Shown piece after piece: positions 461 through 45,561 of a stretch of DNA of 45,561 bases; the first letter of the stretch is position 1, and each line of letters begins with the position of its first letter. Origin of the DNA: Elusimicrobiota bacterium (GTDB taxonomy: Bacteria > Elusimicrobiota > Elusimicrobia > F11); assembly GCA_046153645.1 (NCBI GenBank), contig JBJXGI010000060.1:1-45561 (forward strand). The letters are read 5' to 3'. The position numbers and the translations under genes are program-made. The notes beneath the pieces are model-generated. The model was given only the letters and a program-made list of their open reading frames with translations, did not search any database and was not told the origin of the DNA.

Positions 461-2101
461 TTAAATATTGAAATTAAGTTGTGGTATAGTAAGAATGTAT
501 TTAATATTAAATCCCAAATGGGCCGACATTTTCAGAAACACTCCAATCATCATCAAAAGTAAACTCATACATACGACATATCTAATCATACTAATGCCTT
601 TAAGATACTTTTGCGGCATAAAAACTCCAAATACTAAATAAGTGAATAGCCCAAATCCAATCCAAGCCCCTTGAACGAAAGTAAACATGGGCAACATTCC
701 AACAATGAAAGTAATTGCAAAAGAAAGAATGGTAACTTTTTTGATCGCCGATTTAATATTAATATCCATCTTCAAAAGGATCGGCAATACCATTCCCACC
801 GCAAAATAAATAAAGAGTAAGGCCCCACCAATAAGAAGAGGTAACGAATGAGTTGGAGGAGGCGGCGCTTTATGTAATAACCAATTCTCCCATGGCCAAT
901 AGAATGACCAATTGGGTCCTCTCATAAAAGTTCCCACTACAATAAGCATAAACCAAGCAAAAACGCCAAAAAGAAAAACGGCATTGGCAAAAGGTCTTTC
1001 TTTGAAAGAATAAAAACCAACCCCTAAATTTGGATTGGGATCAAGATAGGGAATAGCAATGAGACCGCCAGCAATAACTCCAGGCAAAACAACTCCGGCT
1101 AACCATGGATCAAAATAAACAAGTAGTTCTTGCAAACCTAAAAAGTACCAAGGTGCTTTTGAAGGATTTGGGGTGACATTGGGATCAGCAATTGTTTCTA
1201 GCGGAGCATTAATCAAAATAGACCAAGCTATAAGGAAAATAAGCATTAATATAGCGCCTATGTATTCCCGGACAACCAAATTAGGCCAAGTTTCAACTTT
1301 ATGATTTGGTTGATCACCTGGAAGCGGCGCAGCAGAAAAACCATCTTTACGCACTCGCCAAAAATGGACAATTAAAAGAACACCAGTAATGAAAGGAACA
1401 GCAATACAATGCAGAACGTAAAAGCGAACCAAAGTGGCCGAACCAACAGCAGTACCACCTAAAAGCCCAAAACGAGCATCATTTTTGAGACCAACCCCTA
1501 ACAAACTCGAGAAAGGTCCTTCTGCTCCCATTAATGGGGTAGAACTGGCCATGTTTGTTCCAACCGTAACAGCCCAAATAGCCAATTGATCCCATGGCAA
1601 AAGATAACCAGTAAAAGATAAAAATAAAGTTAAAATCAGCAGAACAACGCCAACACCCCAATTAAATTCTCGCGGAGTTTTGTAGGCCCCCGTTAAAAAC
1701 ACACGCACCATATGCAGAATAACAAAGAGCACCATCGTATGAGCCGCCCAACGATGCATATTGCGCATAAAAGTACCAAAAGAAACAACAAACTCAAGAT
1801 CCTTCATATCCTGAAAAGCTAAATCAGGAGAAGGACGGTAATAAAACATCAAAATAATTCCAGTGACAGTCAAAACAAGGAAAAGTAAAAAAGATAAACC
1901 ACCCAATCCCCATGTGTAAGTAAACCGAGTGGAACGCGGACGAACTCGAGCAGGGTGTAAGTGGAGCCAAACATTTCCAAGAATATGCTGCGCGCGATCT
2001 CGAGAGGTATCTTTCCATGTTCCGCCGCGAAACATAGATCGCCAAACCTGACTATTAATAATTTCTTCTTTTATTTTTTTGATATCAATTTTGGGAATCA
2101 T
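461..2101 (-). CDS. Cytochrome b of a Rieske/cytb complex (b6-like domain fused to subunit IV-like domain, extra C-terminal TM helices)
   Basis: Heme-ligand His motifs [31 protein letters not shown]; Qo-site variant APWY; start reassigned to ATG 2101 (MIPKID). Confidence 0.93.
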
Positions 2102-2105
2102 AAAT

Positions 2106-2618
2106 TTAAGCCACAATAAAATAAGGTACTTTTTCTCTAAAACCAGGTCGATTTTCCATTTGTCCTTTATCAACAACAAGATCACCTTGCACTGTTTGAG
2201 TTACCATAACTCGCCATAAAGGTTTGGGAGCTGGGCCAGCAATAACATCTCCCTGTGCAGAAAAATTGGACCCATGACAAGGGCATCGAAAACGAGATTC
2301 GGCAGGAAACCAATTGGGAGTACAACCAAGATGGGTACACCTTGCCCACATAGCAAACAGGCCCAACTCTCCCCTTACAATCCAAACACGATTGGCTTTA
2401 TCAATAGTTACACCCATCGGGTAGTCGAGCACTTTACCTGCTTTGAACTTTTGAGAAGGCTCATATAAAACATTTGGAAGGAAAAAACGAAGGAAACTAC
2501 CGACTGATGAGGCAATAAAAACAAGAAAAGCCGACCATCCCCAAAAAAGGAACGATCGGCGACTTAACTCAGGATCTTTAATTAATTGTGTTTCTGGTGT
2601 TTCTATTGTGTCTGACAT
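2106..2618 (-). CDS. Rieske 2Fe-2S subunit of Rieske/cytb complex
   Basis: Tat motif SRRSFL plus TM; CTHLGC and CPCHGS boxes; GPAPKPL. Confidence 0.95.
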
Positions 2619-6382: not shown

Positions 6383-7408
6383 TTAATTATCGGTCCCGGT
6401 TTTTTTATAGATATTTAAAACAGATCCAGAGAGCGGCGGTTTTTTATCGGACTCAAGACGCTCTGTTGTTCGTCGATCTTGAAAAACAATACTTCCACCG
6501 TTTCTCTCGATAGTATGCTTAACGTAACTTTTCATCTCGGTCAGTTGCTGAATAAGAACAGGGTATTGAGTGGTCTCAATATTCTTGTCAGTGAGGAATA
6601 CAATTGAAGCAGAAACAAATTTAAATTTTTTGACATTTCCTTGGCGGTCTTTTGCTGTAATACACCCCGCTTTTAAATCTGCCTCTGAATAATAAGCCAT
6701 TATTCTTTCGTCAAAACGTTTAGCAATCCAATTAAAAACTGTTTCAGCTTTATCAGGAGTTGTCATTGAAACAAAATCGTCTCCTCCAATATGCCCGATG
6801 AAATCAGATTGATTTCCCCATCTTTTGATGCTTTGAACCAATAAATCAGCTAGAAGTCGAATAACTTTGTCTCCCTGTTTAACGCCATAAACGTCGTTAT
6901 AGGCTTTAAAATTATCCAAATCAATATAAGCAAATGACATGGGGTTTCCAGAGGCTAATCTCCGACGAGCTTCATCTTCAATTGCCAAGTTTCCAGGAAG
7001 TCCCGTTAGCGGATTATGCCCCATGTCTACTTTTTTACGTTGCAGCATTCTTTTTACACGAGCCATTAATTCCTGAGCGTCAAAAGGTTTGGTGAGAAAG
7101 TCATCAGCACCAACCTCAATAGACCGAATTCGATCCTGAGCATCCTTCCACCTTCCACTGACCATAACAATGGGAATGGCTCTCGTATGAGGGTCTTGGC
7201 GTAATTGTTCACATATTCTAAACCCATTTACACCAGGGAGTTTTAAATCTAGCACGAGCGCATCAGGAAGCATTTCTCTTACTTTATCAACGGCTAATCT
7301 CCCATCTTTTATCCATTCAACTTGATACCCAGCCAAAGTAAAAGTTAATTGAACATAAGAAGCGACTTGTTCATCATCATCAATAATTAAAATTTTTTCA
7401 CCAGCCAT
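6383..7408 (-). CDS. Response regulator with diguanylate cyclase (GGDEF-family) output domain
   Basis: REC: IIDDD, phospho-Asp in LVLDLKLP, KPF; cyclase: NPLTGLPGN, DLDNFKAYND, GGDDF. Confidence 0.92.
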   Translation of the reverse strand: MAGEKILIIDDDEQVASYVQLTFTLAGYQVEWIKDGRLAVDKVREMLPDALVLDLKLPGVNGFRICEQLRQDPHTRAIPIVMVSGRWKDAQDRIRSIEVGADDFLTKPFDAQELMARVKRMLQRKKVDMGHNPLTGLPGNLAIEDEARRRLASGNPMSFAYIDLDNFKAYNDVYGVKQGDKVIRLLADLLVQSIKRWGNQSDFIGHIGGDDFVSMTTPDKAETVFNWIAKRFDERIMAYYSEADLKAGCITAKDRQGNVKKFKFVSASIVFLTDKNIETTQYPVLIQQLTEMKSYVKHTIERNGGSIVFQDRRTTERLESDKKPPLSGSVLNIYKKTGTDN

Positions 7409-7423
7409 AGATCCTCCTAAAAC

Positions 7424-8107
7424 TTAAGCTTCTTTATTATCTTTCTTTAAAATAATAATTTCGATTCTTCGATTCGTCGCTCTGTTAATAGCAGAATCGT
7501 TTGGAACGATTGGATAATTTTCACCCATTCCCCAGGCAGATAATCTTTCATGAGGAATTCCACTTTTCGTTAATGCCTCCACAACTGAAAATGATCTTGC
7601 CGCCGACAATTCCCAATTAGAACCAAATCTTCCTCCTACAACAGGAATGTTATCCGTATGCCCTTGAACAACAACGTCACCTTCAACAAGTTTAATGAGA
7701 TTGGACAATTGCTCAAGTGCTGAAAATGCCTCCGGATCAAGAATGGCTTTGCCGCTCCCAAATAAAATTTTCTCATTTAATTGAACAACAACCTTCTCAG
7801 ATTCATTTTTAATTTGAAGTTCATTCCCAAAATTACTTTTCATTTTTTCTATATCTTCTGAAAACTGAGAGTAAGAAATATTTTCTTTTTTCAATTTATC
7901 TAAATTACTTTTAACAAGATAACTATAACCATATAAAACCAAGAAAAATATCATAAGGATGGTCATAAAGTCTGAATACGAAACAAGCCATAGGTTTTCC
8001 GATGAATAAAGACTCGTTCTTTTTGAACCGCCCAAAAAACCTAAAAAATCTTTTTTCCGAGAAAGCTCAGATTCAGCTGAAATATTACTTTCTTCACTTT
8101 CGAACAT
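7424..8107 (-). CDS. motB: MotB-family stator subunit with OmpA-like peptidoglycan-binding domain (copy 2)
   Basis: WLVSYSDFMT TM with conserved Asp; GHTDN, NWELSAARS, NRRIEI; start reassigned to ATG 8107. Confidence 0.9.
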   Translation of the reverse strand: MFESEESNISAESELSRKKDFLGFLGGSKRTSLYSSENLWLVSYSDFMTILMIFFLVLYGYSYLVKSNLDKLKKENISYSQFSEDIEKMKSNFGNELQIKNESEKVVVQLNEKILFGSGKAILDPEAFSALEQLSNLIKLVEGDVVVQGHTDNIPVVGGRFGSNWELSAARSFSVVEALTKSGIPHERLSAWGMGENYPIVPNDSAINRATNRRIEIIILKKDNKEA

Positions 8108-8759
8108 AGGGAAATTCCTTATATAAAACAATTTCAACCCTTCTATTCATCCGTCGACCAAGGTTCGTTTGATTGGATGCCCTGGGTTTATAAGGCCCGT
8201 AAGCTGCAGCCGCGATCTGCTCGGAGGGGATACCTAATTCAATGAGTTTATTAACGACAGATAAGGCACGACTCATAGAAAGCTCCCAGTTATCCTTATA
8301 ATTAATACTCCGAATGGGAACTGAATCACTATGGCCCTCGACAATAATAATTTGTTTGGATTTAACTAATGATTGCGCGATAACAGAAAATATTTCATTT
8401 GAAGATGCCTTTAATTCTGATTGAGCCGAATCAAATAAAACCTTCTCTCCAAATTCGATTCTTACATCGCCCAAACTTTGATTGACCATAACCCCTTTTT
8501 GACCACTCATATTGTTTTTTAAATCTGACGCGATATTTCCTAACAAATTAGATTTAAATTCAATGGTACTCGCAGGTTTAAACTGTTCTGCTTTAAAATT
8601 TTTTATTGCCTGAGCCAAAGCCTCATCACCAGCCACTGTAAGCCCATATAAAGAGAGAAAAACCAAAACAAGGTTCGTCATTAAATCAGCATAAATTGTT
8701 AACCAAATCCCCTCAGTGCGAGTATCTTTGACGGGAGGACGATAAAATCGGTGAAGCAT
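8094..8759 (-). CDS. motB: MotB-family stator subunit with OmpA-like domain (copy 1)
   Basis: WLTIYADLMT TM with conserved Asp; GHSDS, NWELSMSRA, NRRVEI. Confidence 0.9.
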   Translation of the reverse strand: MLHRFYRPPVKDTRTEGIWLTIYADLMTNLVLVFLSLYGLTVAGDEALAQAIKNFKAEQFKPASTIEFKSNLLGNIASDLKNNMSGQKGVMVNQSLGDVRIEFGEKVLFDSAQSELKASSNEIFSVIAQSLVKSKQIIIVEGHSDSVPIRSINYKDNWELSMSRALSVVNKLIELGIPSEQIAAAAYGPYKPRASNQTNLGRRMNRRVEIVLYKEFPYVRK

Positions 8760-8761
8760 TT

Positions 8762-9556
8762 TTATCCTTGATTGGCCGCGCCGGCACGAGAAGCAATAAC
8801 CTTGTTCTTACTTTTTCGATTCAAATACGATTCTAATCTTCTAGAAAGAATCGCCGGGCCTTCTTGTCGTTGAATTGAGAGAATAGCTTCGATCATAACT
8901 TCTTTCAAAAAAAGTTCTTGCTCAGAATAGCTTTGAAGTTTTCCAGCAATAGGAAGAAAGAGAAAGTTAGCGCCAAAAATTCCATAAAACGTAGCCGTCA
9001 TGGCCACAGCCATATGACTTCCCATGGTTCGAGGATCTGTTAAGTTCAATAACACCTCAACAACACCGACCAAGGTTCCCAATAAACCGAAAATAGGGGC
9101 ATAAGTCGCCATGTTTCTAAACACATTGGAGACTTCTTCATGACGCAGTCGAATGAAATGGATTTCTTTTTCTAAATTTGATCGGACCAAATTTTCTGGC
9201 AAACCATCGGCGATTAATTTCAGTCCATTGGCAAGAAATTGATCAGAGGTTCCTCTCATATCCAACTCTAAACTTTCCATACTGGTTCTACGGGCACGTC
9301 CCGCCAATTCAAGCATTTGGCTCATAATGCTATCAGCAGATTCTCTTCTACCAGGGAACATAAACATAACAATAGCCATGGGAATTTTTTTGATAATTGA
9401 CCAAGGATATGTAATTAAGGTTGCCCCTAATGTTCCACCAAAGACAAGAACAGCCGCATGGGTATTCATGAAAAATTTTGCAGTTTCACCATCACCTAAA
9501 ACCCAGGCCACCGCACCAAGCCCAACAAACCACCCTAAAAATGTCATTAAATCCAT
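8762..9556 (-). CDS. motA: MotA/PomA-family stator subunit
   Basis: VFGGTLGA, ARRTSMESLE, APIFGLLGTLVG, AMTATFYG, LPIAGKL; four-TM flagellar-type architecture. Confidence 0.92.
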   Translation of the reverse strand: MDLMTFLGWFVGLGAVAWVLGDGETAKFFMNTHAAVLVFGGTLGATLITYPWSIIKKIPMAIVMFMFPGRRESADSIMSQMLELAGRARRTSMESLELDMRGTSDQFLANGLKLIADGLPENLVRSNLEKEIHFIRLRHEEVSNVFRNMATYAPIFGLLGTLVGVVEVLLNLTDPRTMGSHMAVAMTATFYGIFGANFLFLPIAGKLQSYSEQELFLKEVMIEAILSIQRQEGPAILSRRLESYLNRKSKNKVIASRAGAANQG

Positions 9557-9562
9557 GATTTA

Positions 9563-11266
9563 TTATCCTTCTCCCACATTTTTCGAATCTTTTTCTCTAG
9601 AGAATTCTCCATCTTGAACAGGAAACCTTTCTTGATCCGTCCTCTTTTTCAAAAAATTACTTATTTTATTTTCAATATCGTTGCCGGGTCTTGAGGCAGA
9701 ATCAACACTAAGGGATTCTTCAAACTTCATTCCTGCTGGAAGTTTAAGCGAATGACGCAAAGAACCAGCAAGTCTTTCGGCGGGTGAAAAACTCTTTACT
9801 TCGGGGATATGGATATGCCCCTCGGCTTTTAATCTTTTGGCAATAAGCGAAATTTTCCTCTGGGCATCGGTAATTATTTTAGGAGTTAAATTCTCTGTTT
9901 TAAAACTGAGTTCATCCCGGATAATTTCAGCTTTACCTTCTGGGACATGCTCAAGAATTTTATTAACAAACAATTCATCAGATGCTCTTAAACTTAAAAT
10001 CAATGTTTGTAGATCAACTTCCCTTAAAATAGCTTTTAGCGAAGACACCTCAAACTTATCTAAATCCTCAAACAAAAATGAACGCTGCCGCATTTCCTCT
10101 GCAATCTCTGGACTGGACTCTTTCAAATTCTCCAACATATTTCGTTGCGCTTCCGGGTCTAATGACTCATAAACAGAAAACATTCTTTCAGGACCACCGA
10201 TCATATAGTCTAAACGCCTTTTTAAATCTTGCTCAATATCTTCAACTTGTTCGGGGAGAAGTTGCCTTGTTGTTGCCAATTTTGATGTTATTTCACTTTG
10301 CAAAGTAGGACTAATTTTAGACATAACTCGAATAATCCAATCAGCTGGTAAATAACCCAACACAACCGCCGCTTTTTCAGGAGATTCTTTAGAAAGTATG
10401 ACCGCTAAATTACTTATATTATCCTCACGGATAAAACCAAAAGGTAGCGTCGTCTTATTTGGATTTTCAACTTGCAATGCTCCGGAAAAATTTGTGTTCC
10501 CTCCTCCATTCCCTCCATTTGGAAGTCCATAAGATGGCGGAAAATAAGGTGGTATGAGCGGGAAAGGATCGGCCCGATTCCTCCCCGAATCTTCAGGTTT
10601 TAAAGTTGGCAAAATTTGAATCAGGTTATTGAGAAATCCGCGTAAAGGTCCAAACATAAATAACAAGCAAACAAAAACACAAAAAATAGTCAAAATCAAA
10701 ACCACAACAACCCAGTAGTTTTTTAACTCAGTTTGAATGCGATTCATAGGGGAATTATTAACGATAGGAGTGGCAGACTTATTAAACTTTGACTTCTGAA
10801 TATTAAGACTATCGCCTCTTTCAGGATCCAATCCCAAAATCTGCCTTGTCAATTCTCTTACCTTTCCCACTTCAACCTCGGGAAGACTTTCATCTAAAAC
10901 CAGGGTTACAGAAATTCTTTTTATAAATTTCTTAAAAAACTTATCTTCTGTTTTTAATGTATCAACTAAACTTTTAACTTGTTGTGAGGTTTCATTTAGA
11001 GAACTTCTATTTGGTACACCCGGCAAGAAAAAACCATCTGACTCGTCTTGGACAACCGTGTTCGGTGATGAAACCAAAGGCTCTATTCGGACAACCACGA
11101 CAAATTGATCTGGTGATAAAATTTTAGATAACACTTCTTCAACTCTCTGTTGCATCCGAACTTCGAGGTTGAGTCGCTCGCTATCCCATGAAACATCAAT
11201 TGAATAAATAAGGCCCACAAAAACAAAGGGTGCGATCACTAAAAAAGAAAAAAGTTTACGGAACAC
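9563..11266 (-). CDS. FliF C-terminal ring domain (RBM3) fused through a TM helix to FliG middle and C-terminal domains
   Basis: FliF-like LEVRMQQRVEEVLSKIL..FVVVVRIE and IKRISVTLVLD..ILGLDPERGDSLNIQKSKF; TM; FliG-like LSKESPEKAAVVLGYLP, GG linker, FLFEDL, AILREVDLQTLILSLR, KAEIIRDEL, DAQRKI; GTG start at 11266 after GGGGG SD. Confidence 0.85.
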   Translation of the reverse strand: MFRKLFSFLVIAPFVFVGLIYSIDVSWDSERLNLEVRMQQRVEEVLSKILSPDQFVVVVRIEPLVSSPNTVVQDESDGFFLPGVPNRSSLNETSQQVKSLVDTLKTEDKFFKKFIKRISVTLVLDESLPEVEVGKVRELTRQILGLDPERGDSLNIQKSKFNKSATPIVNNSPMNRIQTELKNYWVVVVLILTIFCVFVCLLFMFGPLRGFLNNLIQILPTLKPEDSGRNRADPFPLIPPYFPPSYGLPNGGNGGGNTNFSGALQVENPNKTTLPFGFIREDNISNLAVILSKESPEKAAVVLGYLPADWIIRVMSKISPTLQSEITSKLATTRQLLPEQVEDIEQDLKRRLDYMIGGPERMFSVYESLDPEAQRNMLENLKESSPEIAEEMRQRSFLFEDLDKFEVSSLKAILREVDLQTLILSLRASDELFVNKILEHVPEGKAEIIRDELSFKTENLTPKIITDAQRKISLIAKRLKAEGHIHIPEVKSFSPAERLAGSLRHSLKLPAGMKFEESLSVDSASRPGNDIENKISNFLKKRTDQERFPVQDGEFSREKDSKNVGEG

Positions 11267-12203
11267 GAATTCCCCCTGTTTTAGTTCCATATAGGAATTT
11301 TCGTAAACTGTCGTTATTGGGTTCCAATTGGAGGGCTTTTGTCCAAATTTGTTTTGCCTTCTCTCGTTCGTTCATTGCAAAATAAGCTGATCCAAGGCGG
11401 GTGAGAGCAAGAACATTTTCCGGTTCCAAATCTAAAACATCTGTACACTCTGAAATCGCAGTGAGATATCTCCCCTCGTAAATAGATTCAAGAGAGACCT
11501 GCAATTTATGCTCAACCAAAGTAATACCCGAGGGAACTCGAGGCGTGTCAACTTCCGGGTGTTCATTTTCAACAAGACGCATCAATCGTGAAAATTCAAC
11601 TCGTTCGATTTTTTTATCTGAGGCATATATCAATGTATTTAATGAGCGTTTGGGATCATTTTCCAAGAAATGCGTAACGGCCAAACGAAAAAGACGTGAG
11701 TCTAATGACTCCCCCAATTCCGCTTCGGTAATGGGGTTAATCGCCTCTAACTTTCTACGAATCACTTTGATGGAATTATCTTGTGGAATTAATCTCTCCG
11801 CATTTCGAAAGGTTTCAAGAGAAAATTGATACTGCCCATCACGATACTCTCCCACGCCCTTATTATAAAATTGAGTCGCTTTACTTTGGGATTCAGAGGC
11901 TCTTAATTGCTGTTGTTTTTCTTCTAAAATAAGTCGTGATCTTTCAGTTTCTAAATCAACAACATTTAAACCCATGGGCTTATAATTATCGATTAATCTG
12001 TCTAACTCAATTATTCTCTCATGGAGATTTAAACCGTTACCAACTTTTTGTCGATAAGCAGCAACTTCTTTATCTAATTCTTCTTTAAGGGAGGGCAAAA
12101 TATTTTCCGCAGAATCCCAACTCCACCCTATTATTGTTGATGGATTTAAGATTGCAAAAAACATGCTGAAAAATAAGACTGTTTTTAACGCCGGTCTAAT
12201 CAA
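11256..12203 (-). CDS. Exported tetratricopeptide-repeat protein, first gene of the motor operon
   Basis: N-terminal signal-like segment; TPR repeats FYNKGVGEYRDGQYQFSLETFRNAERLIP and ALTRLGSAYFAMNEREKAKQIWTKALQLEP; SD GAGGAG. Confidence 0.85.
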   Translation of the reverse strand: MIRPALKTVLFFSMFFAILNPSTIIGWSWDSAENILPSLKEELDKEVAAYRQKVGNGLNLHERIIELDRLIDNYKPMGLNVVDLETERSRLILEEKQQQLRASESQSKATQFYNKGVGEYRDGQYQFSLETFRNAERLIPQDNSIKVIRRKLEAINPITEAELGESLDSRLFRLAVTHFLENDPKRSLNTLIYASDKKIERVEFSRLMRLVENEHPEVDTPRVPSGITLVEHKLQVSLESIYEGRYLTAISECTDVLDLEPENVLALTRLGSAYFAMNEREKAKQIWTKALQLEPNNDSLRKFLYGTKTGGIRVP

Positions 12204-12333: not shown

Positions 12334-12372
12334 AAAAAAAACCCAAAAACATAAAAAATGTTTTTGGGTTTT
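12334..12372 (-). terminator. Intrinsic terminator after leuB
   Basis: Perfect 15-bp inverted repeat AAAACCCAAAAACAT/ATGTTTTTGGGTTTT with 5-nt loop and U tract on the minus strand. Confidence 0.8.
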
Positions 12373-38004: not shown

Positions 38005-39045
38005 GTGAAAAAAATTCCCATTCATTCGATTGTTTCTACTCTTTTATTACTCACTTTTTTATCTGGTGCGGCTTATTCAGAATCAATGAAACCTGTCTTC
38101 TTGATAAGCAAAGATGACCTTAATCTTATTCAAGAACGCCAACGCCTCTATAGATTAGGGATGAAAATTCAGCACGAAATTCCTCCCCGGATTATTATGG
38201 GAGAAATCCCTTCTAGTTTAAATACAAATTTATTAGCTCCTTTGAATATCTACACGAGCCCCATCGCAATTGCAGTGGTAGAACCATTAGGACCTATAGC
38301 TATTTCAGGAGCTTTAGAATGGAATAAAAAACTATTAAATTCTTCCCAAAAAATTGGGACCGCTAGTTTTAACGTCATGAAATCATTGGTATCACAAAAA
38401 TCTTTCCCTGGACCCGAAAATTTAGCTTGGAAAAACGAAACCGACTATTGGATATTGAATTGGGAAACGACCAGTAAACCCATATATTTTGAGATTCAAG
38501 GAGCACCGGACGCTTCTTTTAACAACATCACCTATCGAACCAAAACGAATTTAAATTCTTTGCTGATTCCATTTCCTTTACAAGGGAATAATCTCGCTGC
38601 GGTTTATTACAGGGTTCGATCTATTGACCGTCCCAATCCAAATAATCCTTCAGAAGAAATGAACGGAATGTGGTCTCAATTAACCTCCCCTTCTCCACAA
38701 ACTTTACCCAATCAAAATACCAACGTTTCCCCCTCTCTAACATCACCCGTTAATGGCTATCAATCAGAAGGTTTTACCATTAATCTTGAATGGACTTCTT
38801 CTCAGAGATCACGTATCCAAATCGCTGAAGATTCAAAATTCTCAAACATTTTGATAGACCAAATGGCGTTAGATGGCGAGTTTTTTATCCCCAACACGGT
38901 TTTTATTTCAGGTAAAAATTATCATTGGCGTGTATCGAACTGGTCCCTTCAACAAAGCCCATGGAGTGATTCCCGGTCATTTTGGGTGGGAGAACCAAAA
39001 CAAAACTATACAGATATGTTTGTAAACCCCGAGGCCCCCAAATGA
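38005..39045 (+). CDS. Exported hypothetical protein with fibronectin-III/Ig-like domains
   Basis: Signal peptide ending AAYS; PSLTSP.NG...LEW...IQIAEDSKFSN...YHWRV...WSDSRSF pattern; probable GTG start 38005; overlaps next gene (ATGA). Confidence 0.7.
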   Translation: MKKIPIHSIVSTLLLLTFLSGAAYSESMKPVFLISKDDLNLIQERQRLYRLGMKIQHEIPPRIIMGEIPSSLNTNLLAPLNIYTSPIAIAVVEPLGPIAISGALEWNKKLLNSSQKIGTASFNVMKSLVSQKSFPGPENLAWKNETDYWILNWETTSKPIYFEIQGAPDASFNNITYRTKTNLNSLLIPFPLQGNNLAAVYYRVRSIDRPNPNNPSEEMNGMWSQLTSPSPQTLPNQNTNVSPSLTSPVNGYQSEGFTINLEWTSSQRSRIQIAEDSKFSNILIDQMALDGEFFIPNTVFISGKNYHWRVSNWSLQQSPWSDSRSFWVGEPKQNYTDMFVNPEAPK

Positions 39046-40511
39046 GAAAAGGGCTTTTAACTTTAGCGCTCATGGTTTTTCTCAAATCATTTAGCCACGC
39101 AGGCATTCATGCTGTCGGATTAGATAAAACCCAATATACGAGTGACTTTATGATAGGAAAAGTCGCCGTATGCATTATTTTCCCAGAGTCCAATGGTGGA
39201 CAAGATGCAAACACAGAAACCTGGAGCGATGACCGAAAATCGCAAGTTATTTCAGAAATTATGTCAGGCCTTGATTGGTGGACAAAACAAAACCCTCGTT
39301 CTCATTTAAGTTTCACCTACATAACAAAAACAATTGCAACTAAATATGAGCCCATCGCTCGTCCTTATTATGATGAGGCGCTTTGGATCCCAGACATCAT
39401 GAGCAAAATTGGTTACACAGGCGGACGGTTTACCGCCACAAGAAATTTTAATAACGCGTTAAGAGACGAGTATGGAACCAACTGGGCTTTCACTATTTTT
39501 ATCGTTGATAGCTTAAATGACACCAATGGTAAATTCGCAGATGGCCTTTTTGCTTATGCCTATCTCGGTGGTCCTTTTTTAGTGATGACTTATGATAACA
39601 ACGGTTACGGCATAACGAACATGGATGTAGTTGCAGCCCATGAAACAGGCCACATATTCAATGCCCTAGATCAATACGCCGGAGCCAGTTCTCCCAATGA
39701 CTTCTCTATTGGATATTTTCAAACCATTAATGGGAACCATTCCTATTCCTCTACAGCCAATGAGCCCTCATCAATTATGCGGGGTGGAATTCGTTGGGGG
39801 TTAGATAGTTGGGCAAAACAAATGGTAGGGTGGAGAGATTCCAATAACAATAATTTAGATGATCTTATCGACCCACAGCCTACTTTTCAACTTTCATCAA
39901 GTCCAAGTCAATCAGGCAACGGAAATAATTCGTTTTCAGGCGCTGCTTCTGTGAGTGTGCTTCCAAGACAGGGCAATACCCAAGGAAAAGGGCTAACATT
40001 AGATACGGTGTCCAAAGTTGAATACAAAATAAACAACAATGATTGGCAACAAGCTGTCCCCGCAGATGGGATTTTTGATAGCGCACAAGAGTCATTCCAA
40101 ATTAATATTCCAGCCTCTACAACGCTGGGGGCTCAAAATGTTCAAGCAAGTGATTTAACTTTAAGAATTTCGACTTTTTATCAGTCAAACCCTGGAACGA
40201 GTACTCATGGTGGAGGCGGATCTCCATCGAACTTAAATGACGCGCATGCCTATCCCAACCCATTCAAACCAAACTCATCACTGGGGCACGTTGATATTAC
40301 TTTCACTGGTCTTACCAATGGTTCAAAGGTTCAAGTTTTCTCCCCCGCAGGTGAACCTGTCTTCGAAGGAATAGTGGTACCCGCGTCCCATACGCTCCAA
40401 TGGAGGGCCATTAACGATAATGGAACGGCTCTCTCAAGCGGCGTCTACTATTATCTCATCACAGATGATGCAGGAAATAAAAAGAAAGGAAAAATTGCCG
40501 TTATTAGATAA
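39042..40511 (+). CDS. Exported zinc metalloprotease (metzincin-like) with T9SS type-A-like/FlgD-Ig C-terminal domain
   Basis: Signal peptide; HETGHIFNALD and Met-turn SIMRG; C-terminal AYPNPF...SGVYYYLI...KGKIAVIR. Confidence 0.82.
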   Translation: MRKGLLTLALMVFLKSFSHAGIHAVGLDKTQYTSDFMIGKVAVCIIFPESNGGQDANTETWSDDRKSQVISEIMSGLDWWTKQNPRSHLSFTYITKTIATKYEPIARPYYDEALWIPDIMSKIGYTGGRFTATRNFNNALRDEYGTNWAFTIFIVDSLNDTNGKFADGLFAYAYLGGPFLVMTYDNNGYGITNMDVVAAHETGHIFNALDQYAGASSPNDFSIGYFQTINGNHSYSSTANEPSSIMRGGIRWGLDSWAKQMVGWRDSNNNNLDDLIDPQPTFQLSSSPSQSGNGNNSFSGAASVSVLPRQGNTQGKGLTLDTVSKVEYKINNNDWQQAVPADGIFDSAQESFQINIPASTTLGAQNVQASDLTLRISTFYQSNPGTSTHGGGGSPSNLNDAHAYPNPFKPNSSLGHVDITFTGLTNGSKVQVFSPAGEPVFEGIVVPASHTLQWRAINDNGTALSSGVYYYLITDDAGNKKKGKIAVIR

Positions 40512-40743
40512 ACCGTCATATCAACTTCGTCATCAATTTATCATTAACAATTTACTCATAGCATTAATCAAAACACATCTAAAAGAAAGCCTGTTTTTTA
40601 GTTATCCCCCGCAAATAACGAAATAGTTAGTAAAGATTGTCGCAAGTTTATCACTAGGGTCTTAGCAATTTCCGCACTTAACTTTCTTATCCAAGCCTCG
40701 CTTAAGTCACCAATCTGTCATTGGTCACCGTTAGTCTTAAGCC

Positions 40744-41649
40744 ATGAGAAAGTTAGCGTTCATCATCATGAGCTTGGGTCTGGCGGGCAGTGTGCAAGCC
40801 GCTGGGACAAGCTCCGCCCAGTTCCTTAAATTGGGTGCGGGTGCAAAAGCTGCGGCCTTGGGTGAAGCCGCCGTTTCAGTAACCGATGATGTGACAGCCG
40901 CATATTGGAATCCCGCAGGACTATCAAAAGTAGAATCAACTGAATTGGCACTGATGCAAAATTCCTATTTAGTGGATACGAATTATCAGTATGCCGGGTT
41001 GGCTCTTCCAACGAGAAACTACACTTTTGCGTTCTCGTTTTATCGAATGGATTATGGTTCGATTGATAGTTATAACGCTTCCAATGTGAAACAAGGCAGT
41101 TTTAATGCTGGTTCTATGGCGGGCAGCATTTCATTAGCTAAAAAATTAAGTGACTCTGCTTCTATGGGAATGTCTCTTAAATACATATCTGAATCCATTG
41201 AAAACGAAAGCGGAACCGCTTTTGCCGCTGATTTTGGCGGAATAATGAAAGTATCCCGGTTTTCTATCGGAGCTTCCATTCAAAACTTAGGATCCAGCAT
41301 TAAGTTTGTTAAAGAAAGTGAAGATCTCCCACTCACAATTCGATTGGGCGCCTCAACACAATTTTTTAATGAAAAGTTAACTGGTGCTTTTGACATTTCA
41401 AAAGCCAGAGATAACGAAGCGACATTCCATACCGGCCTTGATTATAAATTACTCTCAATCGTCAGTTTAAGAGCGGGTTATCAAGTAACACCTGGCAATA
41501 GCTTAAATATTGATGGCATCACTAACATTAGTGGCGGAATGGGTATTAGTTTAAAAAACTTCAACATCGACTATGCGGTATCTCCTTTTGGAGATTTAGG
41601 CATGGCTCATCGAATTAGCCTCAAGTACAAATTCGCTGCTCGTGAATAA
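40744..41649 (+). CDS. PorV/PorQ-like (UPF0164) outer-membrane beta-barrel protein
   Basis: Signal peptide; FLKLGAGAKAAALGEA...AAYWNPAGL; IDYAVSPFGDLGMAHRISL.YKF terminus. Confidence 0.87.
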   Translation: MRKLAFIIMSLGLAGSVQAAGTSSAQFLKLGAGAKAAALGEAAVSVTDDVTAAYWNPAGLSKVESTELALMQNSYLVDTNYQYAGLALPTRNYTFAFSFYRMDYGSIDSYNASNVKQGSFNAGSMAGSISLAKKLSDSASMGMSLKYISESIENESGTAFAADFGGIMKVSRFSIGASIQNLGSSIKFVKESEDLPLTIRLGASTQFFNEKLTGAFDISKARDNEATFHTGLDYKLLSIVSLRAGYQVTPGNSLNIDGITNISGGMGISLKNFNIDYAVSPFGDLGMAHRISLKYKFAARE

Positions 41650-43636: not shown

Positions 43637-45205
43637 ATGAAGTCAACAGCAGAATTCAAGTTCATAAAATTAATGGCCTTCGGCGTGTTCCTGATCAAAG
43701 GAGTATTTGCTTCTTTTGATCCACTTCCCGTTGGTGGACGGGCGGCTGGAATGGGAGAAGCCTATTCTGCTATTGCTGACGATATTTACGCACTTTATTA
43801 TAACCCCGCCGGAATTCTTCAAATTAATCGACCAGAGTTTGGTACTTATTATTCTCAACTATACCCTGGTTTAACTGACAGCTCTAAGATTTCTCGAATG
43901 TATATTGGTTATGGCCAACCATTTGGGAAAAACGGCAAACATGGCGGTATTGGCGTTAGTTATCTGTCTCTAGGCCTCCCTAGCCTTTATAAAGAAGAAG
44001 CCTTTGGACTGACCTATGGTTATGAATACCGACATTTATGGAATTTTGGGACAACAGTTAAATTACTGAGGAAACAAATTGGGTCTGACAACTACACCAG
44101 TAACGCGATTGATCCTATTACTGGAAACAGCACTGGATCACCTGATCCTTTATTAGCTAAATCTAAAAGCGCTTCAGGAATTGGTCTTGATTTAGGCTTT
44201 CAATATAGACTTACCAGCGCTTACGCACTAGGTCTTGTCGCGAGAAACATCAACAATCCCAGTCTTTCTATTGCCGATGGAGGAGACAAAGCCTCTTCCG
44301 TTTACAGTGCCGCGTTGGCACGAAAATTGCGAAAAGGATCATTGAACCTGGAAATAACACAATGGAAAACAATCGACAGTAATCTCAAATTATCCTTAGG
44401 TGGAGAACATTGGTTCAAAAATGGTTTTGGACTTCGAGCCGGTGGAAGCTTTGGGAATCGAAACCTTTCAAACATAAGCTTTGGCAGTTCATATAAAATG
44501 GAATCTTTCCAACTTGATTATGCGGCTATTTTGCCTCTTCAAGGGATCGAGGGGACCCTTGGAATTCAACAAGTATCTTTAACCGTGAGATTGGGTAAAC
44601 CACCTGTAGATGCTCTTGAAGTACAATTATTAAAAGAAAAAGAAGATCGTATTCGAGCTGAGAGTGAAGCGCGCTATGCAAAAGCGGAAAGTGATCGATT
44701 AAAAGCTCAACTTTATGCATTAACTGAAGCCAAATCACAGGCACAAAAAGAAATTGAGAAACAAGCAGCTCAAAAAACACTCGATGAAGCCAGACAAGCA
44801 GAAAAAGCAAGAACACTGAAAAATCAAAATATTGAATCTGATAAAGTTATTTTTAATTCTTATACCAATGCCCTAGCAGAATACAATTCTAAAGTTTCTG
44901 ATGGTATAAGCCTTTCAGATAAACGAAAAATACTAGAGAAGATACAAAATGATTTCGCTGGTAAAGGGGTAGATACTTCTACCATCATAAGAGAACTGAG
45001 AAATTTAAAAATAGAAGAATCTAAATCAAAAAAAGACTTTGATCTATCGTTGAGTTTCTATCAACGGCTTGCACAACAAGGAGCATCAATAGAAGAACGC
45101 AAAGGAATGTTAGATAGAATTATCCAAAAATACAAAGGATCAGGCGTTGATGTTTCAGAAGCAGAAAAAGAAATGAAAACTCTTTCAGAAGGGAAGTCTA
45201 ATTAA
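43637..45205 (+). CDS. PorV/PorP-like beta-barrel with C-terminal coiled coil and a tandem helical repeat
   Basis: GGRAAGMGEAY..IADD..ALYYNPAG N-terminus; barrel ends QLDYA...QQVSLTVRLG; then charged coiled coil and two ~50-aa repeats. Confidence 0.82.
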   Translation: MKSTAEFKFIKLMAFGVFLIKGVFASFDPLPVGGRAAGMGEAYSAIADDIYALYYNPAGILQINRPEFGTYYSQLYPGLTDSSKISRMYIGYGQPFGKNGKHGGIGVSYLSLGLPSLYKEEAFGLTYGYEYRHLWNFGTTVKLLRKQIGSDNYTSNAIDPITGNSTGSPDPLLAKSKSASGIGLDLGFQYRLTSAYALGLVARNINNPSLSIADGGDKASSVYSAALARKLRKGSLNLEITQWKTIDSNLKLSLGGEHWFKNGFGLRAGGSFGNRNLSNISFGSSYKMESFQLDYAAILPLQGIEGTLGIQQVSLTVRLGKPPVDALEVQLLKEKEDRIRAESEARYAKAESDRLKAQLYALTEAKSQAQKEIEKQAAQKTLDEARQAEKARTLKNQNIESDKVIFNSYTNALAEYNSKVSDGISLSDKRKILEKIQNDFAGKGVDTSTIIRELRNLKIEESKSKKDFDLSLSFYQRLAQQGASIEERKGMLDRIIQKYKGSGVDVSEAEKEMKTLSEGKSN

Positions 45206-45219
45206 AAAAGTACAATACG

Positions 45220-45561
45220 ATGAAAATGAATAAAGCACTCATATTTATAGGACTTTCGATTCTTATATCTCCCATGGGAATTTCTTCCAGTCAATCTATA
45301 GGCGGAGTGGTTCTAACGGATGTAGCGCCACGTATTGTAACGCCCAATGGCGACGCATTAAATGACGTTGTATTTTTCAAGTTTGACTCTAACCTCGCAG
45401 GGATCCCAATAGAAAGTCAAATCGTTGATATTTCAGGAGCGAAAGTAGCAAATCTTGAATTCAATTCGAATGAAACTGCGCTTTTATGGAATGGAAAAGA
45501 TACTTCGGGCAATATTGTTCCGGCAGGAATCTATATTTATTCCATCATCATAGGAAAGAAA
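45220..45561 (+). CDS. Partial ORF: signal peptide followed directly by a T9SS type-B-like (CHU_C/FlgD-Ig) domain
   Basis: Hand translation MKMNKALIFIGLSILISPMG...PRIVTPNGDALNDVVFF...LLWNGKDTSGNIVPAGIYIY; open to window end. Confidence 0.82.
   Translation, partial: MKMNKALIFIGLSILISPMGISSSQSIGGVVLTDVAPRIVTPNGDALNDVVFFKFDSNLAGIPIESQIVDISGAKVANLEFNSNETALLWNGKDTSGNIVPAGIYIYSIIIGKK

Follow-up and report, generated by a model that had tools for sequence, protein, structure and literature searches.

The 45,561-nucleotide stretch analysed here (the window; contig JBJXGI010000060.1 of the Elusimicrobiota assembly GCA_046153645.1, source genome G000, 99.7% complete) carries a minus-strand operon of six open reading frames (ORFs; 6383..12203) that combines flagellar-type stator genes with a FliF-FliG fusion, and that lies between leuB and a tRNA-Gly/Thr-tuf block. 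In the order of transcription, the genes encode a secreted tetratricopeptide repeat (TPR) protein of 315 amino acids (aa; 11256..12203), the fusion of 567 aa (9563..11266), a flagellar-type MotA of 264 aa (8762..9556), MotB1 of 221 aa (8094..8759), MotB2 of 227 aa, a second and distinct MotB type (7424..8107), and an accessory REC-GGDDF protein (6383..7408). All six ORFs of the tightly packed set that a first-pass annotation of this DNA had described are present, with intergenic gaps of -11, 6, 2, -14 and 15 bases, and ribosome-binding sites point to GTG 11266 and ATG 8107 as the likely starts of the fusion and of MotB2. The operon bounds proposed at that stage fared less evenly: a terminator-like hairpin 3' of leuB is found by consensus match only (12338-12372, minus strand), whereas no terminator or promoter-like site was detected between the REC gene and the tRNAs, and terminator and promoter counts around the operon are no higher than in shuffled controls. 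An Rfam scan of the window and five further loci returned tRNAs only, with no riboswitch ahead of the operon.

We refer to this gene set and its relatives as cassettes. The fusion finds a match in 172 of 401 Elusimicrobiota genomes at E<=1e-10, and for comparison we used 62 loci, of which two come from G000 and 60 were chosen among the best matches listed, and all of which hold a full-length fusion; this check covered the 62 loci and not all 172 matching genomes.

A natural single-chain FliF-FliG fusion

Pfam models recognise YscJ_FliF_C (residues 98-169), FliG_M and FliG_C in the fusion. A profile built from 81 fusions matches the M and C domains of Thermotoga FliG (E 8e-73) and residues 240-521 of Salmonella FliF (E 5e-9), as well as SpoIIIAG (E 3.6e-4), whose PDB entry holds 30 chains. 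The AlphaFold model of the fusion has a mean predicted local distance difference test score (pLDDT) of 77 and a predicted template modelling score (pTM) of 0.41, the latter making the relative placement of domains unreliable. Within it, the RBM3 domain superposes on FliF in 8z5v (VIA Z 13.8, root-mean-square deviation (rmsd) 1.3 Å, 89 residues) and 7cg7 (Z 13.8, rmsd 1.5 Å), and the C-terminal part on FliG-C (Z 14.8, rmsd 1.3 Å, 88 residues), the FliG alignment beginning at about residue 105. Together, the profile, Pfam and model matches indicate a chain made of a likely signal peptide, RBM3, one transmembrane (TM) helix, a linker, FliG-M and FliG-C.

All of these parts lie on the minus strand. 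The periplasmic RBM3, or S-ring, domain (10781..11194) has an LPGVP loop at the position of the FliF beta-collar, with P invariant in 57 fusion sequences. It is followed by the TM helix (10655..10711; residues 194-212), a hydropathy peak with an equivalent in all 58 fusions scanned, and by an FLFGP-like motif, and then by the FliG M and C domains (9806..10447), which contain the torque helix GKAEIIRDE (9911-9937). RBM1 and RBM2 of FliF and FliG's N-terminal domain are lacking, so that RBM3 and one TM helix stand where full FliF has RBM1-3 and two TM helices. Judged from its sequence, the six-gene set holds a natural single-chain FliF(RBM3)-TM-FliG(M+C) fusion. Variants of this architecture occur: three fusions (P0206, P0213, P0232) have an N-terminus that is about 350 residues longer, the extra part resembling a histidine kinase in P0206 and P0213, and at two loci (L166:5584-7957 and L169) a separate FliG M+C gene, standing alone, and a large Ig-repeat protein come after the fusion.

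Stator proteins and torque residues

The best NCBIfam matches of the window MotA are MotA, MotP and PomA (E 1e-48 to 1e-54, against E 0.098 for TolQ), and Pfam finds MotA_ExbB with a weak MotA_N match. Both window MotBs match MotB_plug and OmpA; in MotB1 a TM helix with the Asp, a plug and an OmpA-like peptidoglycan-binding domain follow one another. The predicted stator is thus of the flagellar type, with its MotB Asp, plug and peptidoglycan-binding domain, and not of the generic kind with TolQ/ExbB-like A and ExbD-like B subunits. The essential Asp that the first-pass annotation had seen in both MotBs is indeed there, and it is kept in 70 of 78 cassette MotBs; the seven cases with Asn are all in relatives' second MotB, which suggests that the two MotBs form an unequal pair. 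In two cassette MotBs (L150:5307-6020, L137:12212-12925) a LysM domain replaces the OmpA-like domain. Both motA and motB lie inside the fetched stretch at 45 of the 62 loci, and 33 of the 62 have two motB genes.

Aligned to Vibrio PomA, the window MotA keeps the equivalents of R88, R89, E96, D114, P151, T158 and T186, with T185 changed to A. Across the cassette MotAs, position 88 is R or K in 45 of 46 and position 114 is D in 44 of 46. R88, E96 and D114 of PomA are described as indispensable, and the T158, T185, T186 triad as marking Na+-driven stators of the PomAB type, in a study of these proteins (PMC10374538). Signs of the ion type are mixed here: the window reads T, A, T at the triad and I at position 190, as in H+ stators, while T158 is present in 46 of 46 cassette MotAs and T185 in 11 of 46, and the flagellar MotA of the source genome has A158.

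On the rotor side, 59 of 61 fusions retain one or both acids of the FliG D288/D289 pair, the window having D and E. The R281 equivalent is G in 48 of the 61, the window's included; the FliG helix had initially been aligned one residue off, and the K then quoted is the next residue. The EHPQ motif, which we take to be the dock for FliM, retains its His in 33 of 35 flagellar FliGs and in none of the 61 fusions, the window reading ESPE.

The cassette is separate from the flagellum of the source genome

No other flagellar gene was recognised among the window ORFs, as the first-pass annotation had stated. To determine whether the operon simply supplies parts of a flagellum encoded elsewhere, the whole source genome was examined. 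Contig C58 carries a full flagellar cluster with separate fliF, fliG, motA, motB, fliM and fliN, together with fliPQR, flhAB, rod, hook and flagellin genes, so the operon does not supply this flagellum's parts. This cluster (C58:20050-63876; L002, L003) is complete, in a genome whose seven relatives in the family lack FlhA, and the contig shares its GC and tetranucleotide profile with the window contig. When flagellar proteins from C58 were used as queries, matches outside C58 were limited to the two cassettes of G000 and generic paralogues. The second cassette, on contig C81 (L001:1861-12563), has the order PorV-TPR, fusion with a TPR tail, coiled-coil proteins of 583 and 1080 aa, flbD, motA and one motB. 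Nor has the operon decayed in relatives: it is intact, with a fusion match in 7 of 7 same-family genomes, none of which has FlhA. The earlier view of a rotor-stator set apart from the flagellum is borne out by both the C58 set and these relatives.

The same separation is seen across the phylum. FHIPEP (FlhA) occurs in 9 of 401 genomes, five of which have both it and the fusion, and a match to it is lacking in 167 of 172 fusion carriers; among the eight FHIPEP-positive genomes besides G000, four contain the fusion beside their own flagellar FliG. FliM was found in one of five genomes, and there only in the C58 cluster.

Spread and descent of rotor and stator

The fusion is matched in 169 of 194 genomes outside two small-genome families, f2 and f16, and is nearly absent from these (2 of 118 and 1 of 89, respectively). 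A quick tree of FliG M+C with 96 rows separates 61 fusions from 35 flagellar FliGs with a split support of 99, and a careful tree of 36 chosen rows separates 18 from 18 with 100/99, G000's own flagellar FliG falling on the flagellar side; neither tree was independently rooted. In an approximately unbiased (AU) test, a placement of the fusions as sister to the flagellar FliG group of the source genome was not favoured and not rejected (p-AU 0.143). Flagellar FliGs of Elusimicrobiota themselves fall into two separate groups, suggesting patchy gain. In a quick tree with ten flagellar rows, the MotAs of cassettes fall into two well-supported groups, both distinct from flagellar MotAs, which mirror the fusion tree, both trees joining the window's family (f1) to f5 and setting the C81 type apart. 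By these trees, the predicted rotor and stator share matched descent.

A profile of the fusion N-terminus finds 699 clusters at E<=1e-10, and among its top 150 matches 120 of the 122 that are at least 400 aa long carry FliG domains. Homologues are labelled Elusimicrobia. Among 30 clusters looked up, taxon labels exist for four: Elusimicrobiota for two, Ca. Margulisiibacteriota for the third, and for the last an archaeal bin, which we take for misbinning. Viral contigs yielded no relative; 176 plasmid records match, none over 80% of the fusion and, among the matches listed, with the FliG part only. A pattern scan of the genome contigs with a single protein gave one locus.

Genomic coupling of the cassette to PorV-like barrels

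Directly upstream of the fusion, 41 of 58 cases have a gene of the TPR/PorV-TPR cluster, long in 31 and short in 10. In the window, this protein has a likely signal peptide, an N-terminal helical hairpin and a TPR domain of about 190 aa, recognised by Pfam. This domain occurs in 59 of the 62 loci, a count that is partly circular because the model was built from 49 of the cassette proteins; within G000 the model matches only 2 of 4218 ORFs, one per cassette. In most other loci the domain is fused to a barrel of the PorV family, and 41 of 62 loci contain a PorV barrel, where the 23 PorV-family matches of G000 would predict about 0.18 per 20 kb.

Although the window TPR protein is not itself fused to a barrel, its N-terminal helical unit of about 50 residues (11931..12089, minus strand) matches the repeats in the helical tail of a PorV-like barrel 31 kb away (43637..45205, plus strand; NF033709 E 6e-19, under the family cut-off). 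The hidden Markov model (HMM) match has E 7e-7, against E 0.16 for the best reversed-proteome control, and BLASTP gives 33% over 52 aa. This barrel is a candidate outer-membrane partner. The original description of the cassette as self-contained is doubtful, because most cassette TPR proteins are fused to a PorV-like barrel and the one in the window has a domain in common with this distant barrel. Barrels similar to it lie inside the cassette operon in five loci of family f19 (L047, L049-L052). Directly behind it, and cut by the contig end, is a gene for a small protein resembling a type IX secretion system (T9SS) C-terminal sorting domain (CTD), found with HMMs from neighbourhood CTDs (45220..45561, plus strand); it has no NCBIfam match, and a similar gene is also present in f19 operons. 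Large proteins near cassettes likewise end in T9SS-type CTDs.

Parts of a T9SS-like pathway in the genomes

Each genome has 14-32 PorV matches, and G000 combines its 23 with 14 ORFs that have a CTD-like end. G000 also encodes a SprA-like protein of 1801 aa (L131:55-5460 = C100:33154-38559), with colinear TIGR04189 segments (best E 7e-14, below the cut-off) and Atlas clusters carrying SprA_N at 0.98-0.99; a PDB sequence search with the SprA-like alignment gave no match. The gene is present in 353 of 401 genomes of the phylum, as a single copy in most, including 113 of 118 in f2 and 51 of 89 in f16. GldL and GldM were found in none of five genomes, in a search without a positive control. Five near-complete f2/f16 genomes have PorV-like genes and one MotA_ExbB gene of ExbB/TolQ size each, and no FliG_C, for which the positive control matched. 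Since the SprA-like pore is kept where the cassette has been lost, the cassette would not be a general secretion motor, and its near-absence from f2 and f16 fits an optional surface trait. A general T9SS energiser role, considered as a candidate, is weakened by the counts in f2, with the SprA-like pore in 113 of 118 genomes and the fusion in 2 of 118.

The window contains a CTD-tailed protein followed by a PorV-family barrel (38982-41649), and several such cargo-barrel pairs lie elsewhere in the genome. Two G000 clusters (C43:5062-18709 and C29:57638-65141) have TPR, ExbB, ExbD, ExbD and TonB-like genes, an arrangement that we take to be reminiscent of AglRQS-Glt. Giant ORFs of up to 10,179 aa occur on C86, C79, C38, C87 and other contigs, with 53 ORFs of at least 1500 aa in total.

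A related cassette in a second phylum

One genome holds a 94% match to the Ca. Margulisiibacteriota fusion protein, and we then surveyed its phylum (that of G401). There, 74 of 146 genomes have a fusion match, 60 of them a strong one, and 47 of these 60 have no flagellin match; FHIPEP and PorV are each found in 135 of the 146 genomes and flagellin in 15. Of 21 loci, 18 have fusions and three have ordinary fliF and fliG; of the 18, motA and motB are present in 17 and the same TPR domain upstream in 14. This recurrence defines the conserved core as TPR, fusion, MotA and MotB. In a quick tree the fusions of both phyla group apart from 16 flagellar FliGs with support 90. At one locus (L150), a set of hook/rod-like, FliN-like and fliP genes begins just downstream of the cassette and is followed by fliQ- and fliR-like ORFs; L150:7856-12000 and the FHIPEP and flagellin counts may indicate a flagellin-less type III export system.

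Accessory and neighbouring genes

The REC-GGDDF protein combines Response_reg with a partial GGDEF match (profile positions 3-88 of 161). Its gene comes after those of the stator both in the window and in each of the five same-family loci whose downstream part was fetched, and adjoins the cassette only in family f1. It is therefore not a core part of the motor operon, in which it had at first been counted. Paralogues lie on C58 and C69 of G000, and other cassette operons contain histidine kinase genes, while some fusions carry an N-terminal kinase. Elsewhere in the window (461-2618), genes for a Rieske protein and cytochrome b directly follow rplA, breaking the usual ribosomal protein cluster, an insertion that also occurs in several relatives of the window's family.

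Discussion

Our comparisons make it very probable that the operon encodes a working non-flagellar rotor-stator pair. We put at about even the chance that this pair forms an ion-driven, unswitched rotary motor acting through the TPR protein on a PorV-like carrier with a large surface protein; its output would then probably be surface movement or pulling on an adhesin. In such a motor, RBM3 would build a membrane-anchored ring that displays FliG-C in the cytoplasm, and a peptidoglycan-anchored unit of MotA5 and a MotB1-MotB2 pair would turn against FliG-C, using MotA R88, R89 and D114 and the acidic pair of FliG. The lack of both a FliM docking motif and CheW suggests that there is no CheY-type switch, and the stator would turn the FliG-bearing ring in one sense. 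The TPR protein would link ring and carrier, by covalent fusion to the barrel in the majority of loci and in the window perhaps by way of its N-terminal unit; cargo may reach the carrier through the SprA-like pore, and the TPR domain would pass movement or force to the carrier with its surface protein.

Several observations weigh against this model. The ring, its rotation and all contacts are inferred, and RBM1/RBM2 and FliM/FliN, which brace flagellar rings, are absent. The torque interface, initially described as retained, is so only in part: MotA R88 and D114 and the FliG acids are mostly kept, but E96 is E in 16 of 46 cassette MotAs and Q in 22 of 46, PomA R232 is not kept, and Arg at the R281 equivalent survives in a single one of 61 fusions (lost in 60), compared with 33 of 35 flagellar FliGs. 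R281 is important for torque in E. coli, according to the preprint on which we rely for FliG residue roles (bioRxiv 2021.01.07.425829). In the second phylum the torque helix is more eroded, and just 1 of 18 fusion loci there has a TPR fused to a barrel. The window operon, a barrel-less form, has no barrel or cargo gene of its own. Across the 62 loci, a PorV barrel is missing from 21 and motA in the stretch from 17, both partly owing to contig ends and the 20-kb limit; the motA misses concern mostly the cassette type that has long coiled-coil genes, which the limit of the stretch often truncates. The ExbB-ExbD-ExbD-TonB clusters of G000, one of them directly behind a CTD cargo-PorV pair, could do such work instead. 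CheW was found in none of ten genomes, including all eight of the window's family (positive control matched), so any movement in that family would not be chemotactically steered.

We also considered that the cassette replaces GldLM as the energiser of T9SS-like export, pulling loaded carriers from the SprA-like pore, perhaps for giant cargo only. The SprA-like protein, 23 PorV-family matches and 14 CTD-ended ORFs of G000 would suit such a role, as would the failure to find GldL and GldM in 5 of 5 genomes, albeit without a positive control; because the SprA-like protein persists in 353 of 401 genomes, with 113 of 118 in f2 against 2 of 118 for the fusion, and five near-complete f2/f16 genomes combine PorV-like genes with no FliG_C, we think it unlikely. 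Slightly less likely again is a mechanical or ion-flux sensor, in which adhesin load would change stator engagement and signal through REC-GGDDF or kinase partners. Such a sensor could account for the REC-GGDDF gene behind the stator genes in the window and five same-family loci, for the histidine kinase genes of other operons and the N-terminal kinase of some fusions, and for an eroded torque helix and Asn in place of Asp in MotB2 of seven relatives. The signalling gene, however, is not conserved across cassettes, its GGDEF domain is partial and of putative activity, and conservation is strong at the MotB1 Asp, at R88 and D114 of MotA and at the acidic residues of FliG.

That the cassette is a remodelled basal body working with a flagellin-less type III export gate strikes us as very improbable. 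The second phylum gives it some footing, with FHIPEP in 135 of 146 genomes against flagellin in 15 and with the gene order at L150, yet just 1 of 18 second-phylum loci has core gate genes next to the cassette and 167 of 172 Elusimicrobiota carriers have no FHIPEP match. In FliF, RBM1 and RBM2 surround the export gate, and both are missing from the fusion. Hardly credible, finally, is the view that the genes are flagellar parts, spare or in decay, or supply this cell's flagellum with an auxiliary stator. The source genome is flagellated, and the AU test (p 0.143) leaves room for a sister position to its own flagellar FliG group; but the flagellum has its own set, all seven family relatives keep the operon without FlhA, 699 N-terminal-domain clusters exist, with FliG domains in 120 of 122 long top matches, and several ancient paralogue types stand together in one genome. 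A flagellar remnant was ruled out as a candidate on the C58 set, the FlhA-less relatives and the FliG tree.

Beyond the window, we give somewhat less than an even chance to the wider reading that the rotor-stator module is a second kind of FliG-driven rotary machine, present in at least two phyla, which without export gate, rod or switch moves PorV-anchored adhesins for a new form of gliding. If true, the module would rank as the simplest rotor-stator in nature; it would then be either a living model for a pre-flagellar motor or such a motor repurposed in ancient times. A rotor-stator of three or four proteins that occurs naturally without export apparatus would make it possible to test whether the gear can function, and could have originated, apart from type III export, and offers a very small motor to reconstitute; G000, in which a full flagellum and two cassettes coexist, provides a useful internal control. 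Such a rotor-stator also offers a mechanism for the many motAB, flbD and fliG homologues reported in non-flagellated, free-living Elusimicrobiota, whose role was called unclear (Uzun et al., bioRxiv 2022.07.08.499144); the fusion, operon and PorV link are not mentioned in the accessible part of that preprint, and the available portions of two further papers (PMC12204202, PMC7031533) add nothing on the module. Our literature search, whose coverage excludes most subscription journals, found no description of the fusion or operon, and the motor is likely undescribed.

To our knowledge, the gear between stator and FliG serves the flagellum in all known systems, and other 5:2 motors use different transducers. 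The module resembles the flagellar motor in its RBM3 and FliG M+C folds, its flagellar-type MotA with torque residues, and its MotB Asp, plug and OmpA domain. It differs in being a natural single chain with only RBM3 and one TM helix, in the loss of R281 and EHPQ, in its two different MotBs and dedicated TPR partner, and in that neither the operon nor most carrier genomes encode an export gate, rod, hook, filament or FliM/N. An engineered counterpart is a Salmonella FliF-FliG fusion, likewise without FliG-N, which still rotates without FliF-C and FliG-N, though with FliM/N present (PMC6445934). Flagellar-type stator features have been tied to flagellar motility in an analysis whose main text does not mention Elusimicrobia (PMC12505986), and the cassette would be an exception to that tie.

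With the T9SS and gliding machinery of Bacteroidota, the genomes share a SprA-like pore, PorV-family barrels and CTD-tailed large proteins, also beside cassettes, and a 5:2 ion motor proposed to move carrier-held proteins; in Bacteroidota, adhesins bound to carriers are dragged along by a ring or track that such a motor powers, and carriers of this kind are moved by it for both export and gliding (PMC10994853, PMC12635249). Unlike there, GldL and GldM were not found in five genomes (again without a positive control), 14-32 PorV matches occur per genome, and the ring would lie in the inner membrane, driven from the cytoplasm through FliG, whereas GldM drives an outer-membrane ring. The T9SS is moreover described as confined to FCB (Fibrobacterota, Chlorobiota and Bacteroidota) phyla, its genes being stated as absent elsewhere (PMC11285876).

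SpoIIIAG of Bacillus sporulation likewise reuses a single RBM3-like domain outside the flagellum, in a ring that has neither FliG nor stator. AglRQS-Glt of Myxococcus, ExbBD-TonB, TolQR-TolA and ZorAB are 5:2 ion motors whose outputs, like that of the proposed motor, lie outside the flagellum. AglRQS has small subunits of two different kinds, which the two MotBs of the cassette may parallel. All of these, however, work without FliG, and the MotA described here scores as flagellar-type (E 1e-54, against E 0.098 for TolQ). As read from its genes, this conserved module of flagellar parts belongs neither to the flagellum nor to the non-flagellar 5:2 motors.

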